A stretch of DNA of 64,000 bases from Escherichia phage UE-S1: sequence record ON568341.1; one strand, written 5' to 3'. Position 1 is the stretch's first letter. Each line of letters opens with the position of its first letter. Under the pieces are notes generated by a model. That model was not told the origin of the DNA and made no database searches. It worked only from the letters and a program-made list of their open reading frames with translations. The position numbers and the translations under genes were made by a program. Below are positions 32,152 through 33,849 of the stretch, piece by piece.

Positions 32152-33849
32152 TTAATTTAAAAAATCGTATGGATTTGATTTATTAAATTGTGGATTATTA
32201 CCATGTAATGTATCATATAGATATATTTTACTTAACCCATCACTTGCTATTTGTACAGAATTAGTTGAATTGTCATCAACTTTACATGAATATAGATATA
32301 CTTTAGAAATTCCTGTTAAATCTGAACCTTGTCCAGAAGTAAAAGCAGTTTGTCCTAAAGTGTTATCAGTTCTAGTACTTCCATACGAATGACAATTGAT
32401 ATTTACAGTACATGTTTTGTCATGAACATCATGAACAACTCTACCATAAGTTGCATAATATGTACCATTAATTCGTAATCCTACAACACCATCATGTGCT
32501 GTAGAACCGTTGTTATTTGGTAAATTATCAAAACCACTATAACGACCAATACAATTTAATTCAATAAACCAGGGAATTATACCTAAAGAATAAAAATCCG
32601 CGTGATAATTAAATGCATCTTGCATACCATATTCCGCAATACAATCTTGTAAAACACAATTACTACCTCGACCATTAAATGAGTTTAATGATGCACTTAA
32701 ACCAAAGGTGACATTTTTACAATACACATAACATTGTTTATTTGCAGTTTTGGTTTCTGCGTGAAAACCACGAAAAGAGTTTGTAAACTTTATATTTTCC
32801 ATATACAATTTTGTATTATCTTGAACTCTACCATTGGTCAATTCCATAATAACTTTTACATTATTATTTGGTGCAGTGGATGATGATAGGTGAAAATATG
32901 TTATATTTCCAGATTTGAAAAATGTACCTGCTGTTGACTCAACTAACGCAATAGATGTTGTTTCGTTTAAAATATAAGGATGACCATATTGGTCTATAAT
33001 ATTATAATCAGCTATATTGAATACTAAATTTTGTGTTATTTGATATACATTATTATATCCTGTTGTTTTTACAAATGTTGGATTTTCTAATTCTCCAGAT
33101 AAAATAGGTGTTCCATCATAACCTATAATATCAATAGTTCTATCAACTATTGATGTTGACCATGTATAATCTCTAGTGTAGGTTTGATTACCTTTAATCA
33201 TGATGGTATTTGCCAATGGTGTTTGTGTGATTGCTTTGTTTATTCTCATGAAAGGTTTTTCAATTGTACCATCACCAGTAGTGTCGGAGCCATTTAATTT
33301 ATCAACATAATATGTTATTTGTGGTGATTGATTTTTGTGAATGGAAACATCATAATCGTAATTGTATGTTAATGTTGAATCTGAATTTATAATTTGAGTT
33401 ATAGGAAATTTTTCTTCTATTCTGTGTAATTCATATGGAAGTTCAAGTTTATGTTTAGTTGCTCCAGTAACTAAATCAACAAAAGAATCTCCATTTGAAT
33501 TAATAAAATTAAGTATTTGTTTATTTCTAACATTAGCAATAACAAAAAGACCTGAATTATATGTAGAAGATTGATGATAATGACCATCATCTGATACATA
33601 AATTGAAATCGTGTTATCATTTAATGTTAAAGTTTCCTGATTAATATGAATATTTTTACCATTTATAATAAATGAACCATCATTCAAAGTTAATACATTT
33701 TTGTTTATAGTATACGTAGGAAAAGTTATAATTTTATTACCTAGTATATTATATAAATCAATATTTCTAACTGCACCATTATCATCAATATTTTGTTTAG
33801 AAATTGAAGCGGTTCCTAATATTTCTAAATCTGTTGCTATTTTATACAC
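32152..33849 (-). CDS. right-handed beta-helix (pectin-lyase-fold) protein, 565 aa; tailspike/depolymerase-like
   Basis: GSDTTGDGTIEKPFMRINKAI motif typical of beta-helix N-caps; Asn/Thr/Gly-rich repeats; GTG start with AGGAGA RBS. Confidence 0.65.
   Translation of the reverse strand: MYKIATDLEILGTASISKQNIDDNGAVRNIDLYNILGNKIITFPTYTINKNVLTLNDGSFIINGKNIHINQETLTLNDNTISIYVSDDGHYHQSSTYNSGLFVIANVRNKQILNFINSNGDSFVDLVTGATKHKLELPYELHRIEEKFPITQIINSDSTLTYNYDYDVSIHKNQSPQITYYVDKLNGSDTTGDGTIEKPFMRINKAITQTPLANTIMIKGNQTYTRDYTWSTSIVDRTIDIIGYDGTPILSGELENPTFVKTTGYNNVYQITQNLVFNIADYNIIDQYGHPYILNETTSIALVESTAGTFFKSGNITYFHLSSSTAPNNNVKVIMELTNGRVQDNTKLYMENIKFTNSFRGFHAETKTANKQCYVYCKNVTFGLSASLNSFNGRGSNCVLQDCIAEYGMQDAFNYHADFYSLGIIPWFIELNCIGRYSGFDNLPNNNGSTAHDGVVGLRINGTYYATYGRVVHDVHDKTCTVNINCHSYGSTRTDNTLGQTAFTSGQGSDLTGISKVYLYSCKVDDNSTNSVQIASDGLSKIYLYDTLHGNNPQFNKSNPYDFLN

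Follow-up and report, generated by a model that had tools for sequence, protein, structure and literature searches.

Tailspike depolymerases set the host range of phages and are under development as anti-capsule and anti-biofilm agents, and both the modular exchange of tailspikes and the gain of morons are textbook phage biology. The present analysis deals with a minus-strand gene, hereafter the tailspike gene, at positions 32152-33849 of a 64,000-nucleotide stretch of Escherichia phage UE-S1 (sequence record ON568341.1). This whole stretch, called the window here, is Asteriusvirus-type (PBECO4/121Q-like) Escherichia coli jumbo phage DNA. The closest described architecture is that of the KP32-type second tailspikes (Przondovirus; the class of Henu1 gp43 and KP32gp38), which are ~520-690 residues long and consist of a short N-terminal peptide, a β-rich N-terminal domain, and a β-helix, with no anchor domain. 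These second receptor-binding proteins (RBPs) have been proposed to dock via the short N-terminal peptide on the T4gp10-like domain of the first tailspike (PMC6872550). In Rak2-like jumbo phages, branched fibres are made from many tailspike-type proteins, and the gene of one RBP, RaK2 gp098 (Alcyoneusvirus), lies a long way from the main cluster of tail fibre genes (PMC10253068).

The tailspike protein of the window has 565 residues, compared with 559-560 in the KP32-type proteins, and the order of its segments is the same. It is 46% identical to Henu1 gp43 and 52% identical to a further homolog (P0002) over residues ~38-564. The differences are observed in the N-terminus and in the genomic setting. 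The KP32-type proteins have a conserved N-terminal peptide of ~29 residues, whereas the first ~37 residues here are not conserved with it: the tblastn alignment with Henu1 starts at residue 38, and before this position only a loose linker pattern is seen in the alignment with these and other homologs. In addition, KP32-type phages are GC-rich podoviruses of 40 kb, whereas the present gene, with a GC content at third codon positions (GC3) of 11%, lies outside the tail module of a 350-kb myovirus. The Henu1 literature gives K1 as the host K-type; a specificity of gp43 was not found there.

A second group of relatives comprises prophage tailspikes of E. coli, Klebsiella, and Serratia (P0003-P0017), whose bodies are 44-50% identical from the linker to the C-terminus and have the invariant residues described below in common with the window protein. 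These proteins carry adaptors of 130-320 residues (the T7 tail fibre N-terminus, the P22 head-binding domain, or the TSP1/gp66 N-terminus), whereas the window protein carries none. More distant members of the family are phiKp24 gp294 and gp295 and the tail fiber of Serratia phages Moabite and 2050HW (27-29% identity over ~90%; template modelling (TM) score of 0.71 in BFVD). They also belong to contractile-tailed jumbo phages, but their N-termini are ~170 residues longer and their genes are in the tail fibre cluster; gp294 and gp295 of phiKp24 are encoded in a tail fibre module, among 14 branched fibre proteins. RaK2 gp098 resembles the present case as an RBP of a Rak2-like jumbo phage with its gene outside the tail cluster. 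It is, however, not homologous, has no β-helix depolymerase domain, and is the product of a core gene of its genus, and its location in the baseplate has been shown experimentally.

The tailspike gene quite probably encodes a tailspike-family protein that binds or cleaves surface polysaccharide and that was gained horizontally by a minority of Asteriusvirus jumbo coliphages. A preliminary description of this DNA had placed a minus-strand gene at this site within a plus-strand tRNA island, and exactly this open reading frame (ORF) was recovered, antisense to an island of eight tRNA genes (29577-36849; ARAGORN), all of which are on the plus strand. The length of 1.7 kb is far beyond chance at 28% GC, and each of the alternative in-frame starts would remove part of the N-terminal stretch in which the alignment with homologs begins (residue ~12-38). 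The GTG start and the ribosome-binding site (RBS) noted earlier are both present, and so is an AT-rich upstream region of its own: its GC content (Table 1) is the lowest in the window for any 161-nt stretch. The claim that this is one of only two minus-strand genes holds for ORFs of at least 150 residues (2 of 43, the other being at 41777-42931). Relatives carry annotated small minus-strand ORFs, so that for genes of all sizes the claim is approximate.

The protein is predicted to be a right-handed parallel β-helix with a pectin-lyase-like fold. The AlphaFold2 (AF2) model, built from 30 sequences, had a mean predicted local distance difference test score (pLDDT) of 80 and a predicted TM score of 0.75, and the pLDDT exceeded 90 over residues ~170-490. 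All 23 matches of this model against the PDB at E <= 1e-3 (Foldseek) were β-helix enzymes or tailspikes. In BFVD, TM scores of 0.72 and 0.71 were obtained to family members annotated as xylosidase and tail fiber, respectively. Both the β-helix and the kinship to tailspikes and depolymerases had been proposed in the preliminary description. The structure prediction and the homologs, which are annotated as tail fibers and tailspikes and carry virion-anchoring adaptors, agree with that proposal, and neither of the two outcomes named there as speaking against it (a fold other than a β-helix, or homologs without kinship to tailspikes) was observed. The body had also been described as rich in Asn, Gly, and Thr. 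This is correct for Asn (11.2%) and Thr (10.1%), which are accompanied by Ile (9.4%) and Ser (7.6%), but Gly is just moderately high (7.3%).

The N-cap motif that had been pointed out ahead of the helix was found at residues 187-207 as GSDTTGDGTIEKPFMRINKAI, following the pattern G-x-D-x-x-G-D-G-x-x-x-x-P-F (DUF1565-like). A profile search against the PDB matched this motif in the tail fiber of Agrobacterium phage 7-7-1 (9rkv) and in Milano gp124 (8fqc); apart from N-cap matches, this search returned a chance-like match to asparaginyl-tRNA synthetase. Weak matches to DUF1565 were seen in four homologs and none in the query protein. As to the synthetase, residues 180-208 (33226-33312, minus strand; YVD..GSDxTGDGTxEKPF) match the N-terminal extension of the eukaryotic cytoplasmic enzyme (PDB 4zya, 8tc8, and 2kqr; E = 0.002-0.35). 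This likeness is probably due to chance or to convergence of a short motif.

The family of the protein is large and lies outside the curated collections. Searches of Pfam, NCBIfam, and PDB sequences gave no useful match, no curated family (Pfam, NCBIfam, or CAZy-type) covers it, and an exact-sequence look-up of the protein returned no record. In PHROGs, it matched phrog_30606 (unknown function; 4e-73), phrog_32409 (tail fiber), and phrog_16653 (hydrolase). The homologs found by tblastn and by a search of 5.8 billion proteins fall into three tiers. The first consists of JNE01 and contigs of E. coli assemblies at 97-98% identity. After a gap, tailspikes of Klebsiella, E. coli, and Serratia follow at 44-52%, and the third tier, at 25-35%, consists of tail fibres, both from jumbo phages of Serratia and Klebsiella and from phages of Staphylococcus, Bacillus, and Gordonia. 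An exhaustive search collected 1521 representatives of clusters defined at 50% identity (E <= 1e-3), mainly over residues ~160-500. A Pfam scan of the homologs found several adaptors fused to this body: Phage_T7_tail in four, Head_binding in two, Tail_spike_N in two, BppU_N in three, and collagen in one. Mixed adaptors on one body are the classic modular tailspike pattern. The window protein is thus a divergent protein of the tailspike/depolymerase type, with two canonical tailspike features absent, namely an anchor domain of its own and a location in the tail module.

Many residues of the helix are conserved in the 30 aligned homologs, which come from phages of both Gram-positive and Gram-negative bacteria. 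D281, Y349, D411, N414, Y415, N446, N447, S449, T450, H452, R459, D474, and N483 are invariant in 30/30, and E351, H416, E430, and D453 are nearly invariant. D411, E430, H452/D453, and D474 are 19-22 residues apart, which is approximately one rung of the helix. A spacing of one rung is the layout of catalytic grooves in β-helix glycosidases (GH28-type enzymes). These side chains might be stacked on consecutive rungs, so as to form a groove that binds and cleaves glycan, and the protein is probably a trimer. The target would be a polysaccharide on the bacterial surface (capsule, exopolysaccharide, or O-antigen), bound and cut by the β-helix.

The enzymes nearest in structure, GH141 BT_1002 (5mqp), GH120 XylC (3vst), and PL9 Pel9A (1ru4), show likeness at the level of the fold only (12-13% identity; Foldseek TM <=0.41), and no Pfam or PDB sequence match placed the protein in GH141 or GH120. 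Based on the one-rung spacing and on GH141 as the top Foldseek match, a hydrolase seems somewhat more likely than a lyase. It could also be considered that the protein is a non-catalytic glycan-binding RBP or an adhesin-like fibre tip, as its sequence matches none of the characterised families of glycoside hydrolases or lyases. However, the invariant Asp/His/Arg/Tyr set (D411, E430, H452/D453, D474, and R459), with its members about one rung apart, is maintained from Gram-positive to Gram-negative phages. Such a pattern is typical of an active site and not of strain-specific binding, and the top structural neighbours are enzymes. A protein that only binds glycan is accordingly considered unlikely, and the reading as a putative polysaccharide-cleaving tailspike is retained here.

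The presence of the gene is polymorphic. The 4.5-kb neighbourhood has matches in 60 phage records (80-99% identity; coverage of 65% at most), and one among these 60 related records, JNE01, carries the gene (97.8% nucleotide identity); no paper on JNE01 was found. Further carriers are eight contigs in public assemblies, which have a 98%-identical allele that is always antisense to its neighbours. When the window is compared with JP4, which is without the gene, homology ends at 31853 and resumes at 34083, giving junctions at 31853/31854 and 34082/34083. Between them, 2229 bp stand in for ~508 bp of JP4; this JP4 segment holds the 3' portion of an ORF of 180 residues and the greater part of tRNA-Ser(GCT).

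The right junction lies in a chimeric pseudo-tRNA (Table 1). Its 5' two-thirds, with 20 nt upstream, are 92% identical (blastn) to tRNA-Cys(GCA) of vB_PcaM_CBB (CBB), a Pectobacterium jumbo phage of Mimasvirus. In a three-way alignment, the crossover is within a 17-nt stretch of the T-arm, GTGGGTTCGAATCCCAC, which is common to tRNA-Cys and tRNA-Ser. The acceptor arms of the product lack complementarity, and no tRNA was called there by ARAGORN or Rfam. On the left side, 31854-32145 matches CBB only, at 91% identity. A small plus-strand ORF in this part (31887-32141) starts as CBB_491 and continues as CBB_492, which are tandem paralogs. A 1-nt deletion leads to a frameshift after KYAQ and to read-through into the tRNA gene, and the translations show a stop in the CBB frame; against PHROG 20448, the hybrid matches over residues 6-36 only. 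This ORF is probably a pseudogene.

The tRNA-Met(CAT) that follows is damaged in all carriers. In the window, its anticodon loop, CTTCATAA, has 8 nt owing to one extra T, and ARAGORN reported it as "tRNA-???" with anticodon tcat. The loop has 7 nt in the nine other carrier copies and in CBB, and the extra T occurs in the window only. It could stem from a sequencing error or be a real +1 insertion, by which the tRNA would be dead or similar to a frameshift suppressor. The window copy has a perfect acceptor stem, whereas in JNE01 the stem is lost and the Rfam model matches at positions 8-63 only; the eight other carriers have the same altered 5' acceptor sequence as JNE01, which alone was scored against the model.

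From these junctions, part of the tRNA island of an AT-rich, CBB/Mimasvirus-like jumbo phage that has not been sampled would have entered the Asteriusvirus tRNA island by recombination, with the right crossover in the conserved T-arm of the donor tRNA-Cys and the resident tRNA-Ser. After entry, the passenger DNA would have decayed, and the tailspike gene would have been kept by purifying selection. In CBB, tblastn found no homolog of the tailspike gene, and a donor search of IMG/VR and the phage collection found no relative closer than ~50% outside Asteriusvirus.

The composition of the gene was compared with that of 42 other ORFs of at least 150 residues in the window, as the preliminary description had proposed. 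Its GC3 is 0.111, and that of the others is 0.233 on average (standard deviation 0.039; minimum 0.151), so that it deviates by z = -3.2. The suggestion of an independently acquired moron is borne out by this deviation, by the presence in one of 60 relatives, and by the junctions mapped in tRNA genes. The deviation is toward more AT, away from the GC-rich homologs, and the protein is a deep outlier of its clade: its identity to the homologs is 44-52%, compared with 53-93% among these homologs themselves. The low GC3, together with the outlier position, fits a long residence in very AT-rich genomes better than recent transfer from a prophage or podovirus of high GC content.

All 10 gene copies are intact, with the GTG start, 565 codons, and a conserved RBS. 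Between the window allele and each of the others, there are 35-38 nucleotide differences. The ratio of nonsynonymous to synonymous substitution rates (dN/dS; NG86) is 0.16-0.17 overall, 0.40 in codons 1-170, and 0.11 in codons 171-565, which indicates that the gene is under purifying selection. That the gene is intact and constrained amid decaying passenger DNA argues that selection retains the cargo. This bears on the possibility that the gene is a non-functional hitch-hiker, carried along by recombination in the tRNA island or by a homing endonuclease. Its surroundings are all decaying, an HNH homing endonuclease gene is adjacent in most carriers, and the gene is rare among relatives. These observations are in line with hitch-hiking, but the 10 intact copies come from independent samples, the constraint is strongest in the β-helix, the GTG start and RBS are conserved, and the codon usage follows the AT bias of the phage even more strongly than the phage does. 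In addition, the HNH gene and the tailspike gene each occur without the other. Hitch-hiking is disfavoured and seems very improbable; the account of a tailspike gene retained by selection is followed below.

The HNH gene lies 5' of the tailspike gene in the window, JNE01, L004, and L008, lies 3' of it in L005, L007, and L009 (~89% identity), and is absent from L006; JP4 has the HNH gene without the tailspike cassette. The idea of the tailspike gene as strict HNH cargo was rejected on the basis of JP4 and L006 and of the occurrence of the HNH gene on either side. The HNH gene is a neighbour in a recombination-prone island, not an obligate carrier.

How the protein would reach its substrate depends on the N-terminus. 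Residues 1-36 have a pLDDT below 50 in the AF2 model, and residues 1-37 align with the linker of the homologs, G-x-x-x-(V/I)-G...D-G-x-T-V...D, at which their adaptors join. The domain of codons 38-170 is common to the enterobacterial tailspike homologs. Attachment to the virion, by analogy with the KP32-type proteins, might be mediated by the short N-terminal peptide, which would bind to the branched fibre apparatus. For attachment speaks that the window has just one other large minus-strand gene and that this gene encodes a virion structural protein. This mode is slightly favoured, at roughly even chances. Glycan on certain E. coli strains would then be stripped or bound, which would lead to wider or better adsorption and host range.

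The protein might instead be a free, non-virion depolymerase, released at lysis to degrade capsule, exopolysaccharide, or O-antigen on debris and neighbouring cells. Such an enzyme would help the progeny to escape and spread, through plaque halos and biofilm penetration. It would need no anchor domain, and the N-terminus is indeed disordered, unlike that of any other Asteriusvirus protein, and variable between alleles. The gene is outside any structural module, and the protein starts exactly at the adaptor linker of the homologs, as if the body alone had been captured. On the other hand, every homolog with an identifiable N-terminus is virion-anchored, the KP32-type second tailspikes, which are equally short, are proposed to be bound to the virion via a short peptide, and residues 38-170, common to virion tailspikes, are kept under purifying selection. 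The free enzyme, with its proposed benefit to the progeny, is thus a genuine but lesser possibility than virion attachment. The virion proteome of phAPEC6 is uninformative on this protein, because phAPEC6 is without the gene.

Several observations weigh against the account given here, and in particular against attachment to the virion. An anchor or adaptor domain in the protein was not detected with Pfam, NCBIfam, or AF2. The tblastn search of residues 1-78 against phage records matched the JNE01 ortholog alone and so gave no sign of a docking peptide common to Asteriusvirus, and the N-terminal peptide is the most variable segment between alleles, with 3 of the 13 substitutions in residues 5-11. 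The gene sits in the replication/tRNA region, outside the tail module: the rest of the window is non-structural (clamp loader, TelA, intein-containing C5 methylase, and sigma70-family factor), and the Asteriusvirus tail fibre proteins are encoded outside it. Receptor biology in Asteriusvirus is also scarcely known, which is counted against attachment. As for function, no solved or biochemically characterised close homolog was found, so that catalysis, the choice between hydrolase and lyase, and the substrate rest on fold-level analogy. As for acquisition, the order in CBB is tRNA-Cys, 490-492, and tRNA-Met, opposite to that in the window and with no tailspike between; the donor might be an unsampled relative with another arrangement, or two events took place.

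The expression signals belong to the same side of the balance. In a sigma70 scan, minus-strand matches for the tailspike gene were weak and not more numerous than expected from shuffled sequences, and a terminator scan at the gene found none above shuffles. Use of T4-type late promoters was considered and rejected, as the window contains TATAAATA less often than expected (4 occurrences, against an expectation of 13). The sequences upstream of both large minus-strand genes have no convincing motif in common. The AT-rich region in Table 1 contains a strong plus-strand sigma70-like promoter with an extended TG (TTGAAA-18-TATAAT; 33977-34006), just upstream of the pseudo-tRNA, and ~58 bp of this region are missing in JNE01. 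At the other end, the stop codon is abutted by the convergent tRNA-Met gene, only 6 nt apart.

Table 1. Positions of the tailspike gene, the segments of its product, and the adjoining features in the window.
Feature	Position	Strand	Basis or remark
Coding sequence, putative tailspike-family right-handed β-helix protein	32152..33849	-	565 aa, GTG start
N-terminal peptide, codons 1-37	33739..33849	-	Predicted disordered, no adaptor domain
β-rich N-terminal domain, codons 38-170	33340..33738	-	pLDDT ~70-87, all strands; aligned to homologs from ~38
β-helix N-cap motif GSDTTGDGTIEKPFMRINKAI, codons 187-207	33229..33291	-	Sequence and profile matches
Predicted right-handed parallel β-helix body, codons 171-500	32350..33339	-	AF2 and alignment
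C-terminal region, codons 501-565	32155..32349	-	pLDDT 32-80; conserved in the enterobacterial clade only
Shine-Dalgarno sequence AGGAG	33856..33860	-	6 nt 5' of GTG, from sequence
AT-rich divergent intergenic region, presumed promoter region of the minus-strand gene	33850..34010		GC 0.149
Cassette common to carriers: tRNA-CAT remnant, tailspike gene, AT-rich region, pseudo-tRNA	32078..34258		~96.5%, blastn against L001, L004-L009
Left flank unique to the window: CBB_491/CBB_492-like hybrid small ORF, frameshifted	31854..32070	+	Alignment, translations
CBB-type tRNA-Met(CAT), convergent with the coding sequence	32071..32145	+	Rfam tRNA 51.8 bits, full length
Chimeric pseudo-tRNA	34033..34107	+	5' two-thirds CBB-type tRNA-Cys(GCA); 3' acceptor Asteriusvirus tRNA-Ser(GCT)
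NUMOD4/HNH homing endonuclease adjoining the cassette	34331..34855	+	Pfam PF07463, PF13392; PHROG HNH families

Some other features of the window should be mentioned. The other large minus-strand gene (41777-42931) matches phrog_10468, "virion structural protein" (E = 6e-163), and is preceded by a near-consensus sigma70-type promoter (TTGATA-16-TATAAT) and a GGAGG RBS. Its equivalent in CBB is the minus-strand structural gene CBB_496, beside the tRNA island of that phage. Within the island of the window, the tRNA-Ser at 34918-35009 (+) has the unusual anticodon ACT, with A at position 34, and is also kept in JNE01, JP4, and other Asteriusvirus contigs. The Sharanji paper describes a tRNA-specific adenosine deaminase encoded by phages of the Asteriusvirus group; this enzyme could convert A34 of tRNA-Ser(ACT) to inosine. 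Three paralogous plus-strand ORFs of 54-59 residues, starting with MTH(K/E)EWM..., are located among the tRNA genes (29892-30071, 30676-30840, and 30837-31001), which looks like tandem duplication of tiny island genes.

Farther away on the plus strand, 18728-20608 encodes a 626-aa C-5 cytosine DNA methylase split by an intein with Hint, intein-splicing, and LAGLIDADG homing endonuclease domains. A TelA-like toxic-anion-resistance protein is encoded at 7150-8286 (+), and a sigma-70-family factor with regions 2 and 3 at 47733-48686 (+).

In a subset of these jumbo coliphages, strain specificity may be determined by the tailspike gene, and the receptors of Asteriusvirus are poorly known. Its β-helix family of more than 1500 clusters at 50% identity is without a Pfam model and without a solved or characterised member. 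The locus provides an unusually clean record of the entry of a tailspike into a jumbo phage, by recombination at tRNA genes followed by decay of the passenger DNA. Of note are the tRNA-mediated acquisition, which is cleanly documented, and the anchor-less architecture; the biology is of an expected kind, that of an ordinary host-range accessory gene. In a broader reading, the tRNA islands of Rak2-like phages would be platforms for the exchange of host-range genes between genera, with the universally conserved T-arm of tRNAs as the site of recombination. In the present case, the donor would be Mimasvirus-like, the recipient an Asteriusvirus, and the cargo an anchor-less orphan tailspike. This cargo would use a vacant fibre docking site through an unrecognised short peptide or act as a free depolymerase. 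Taken as a whole, this reading is rather speculative and somewhat doubtful. If general, it would mean that RBPs may be acquired by a route distinct from, and outside, the tail module.

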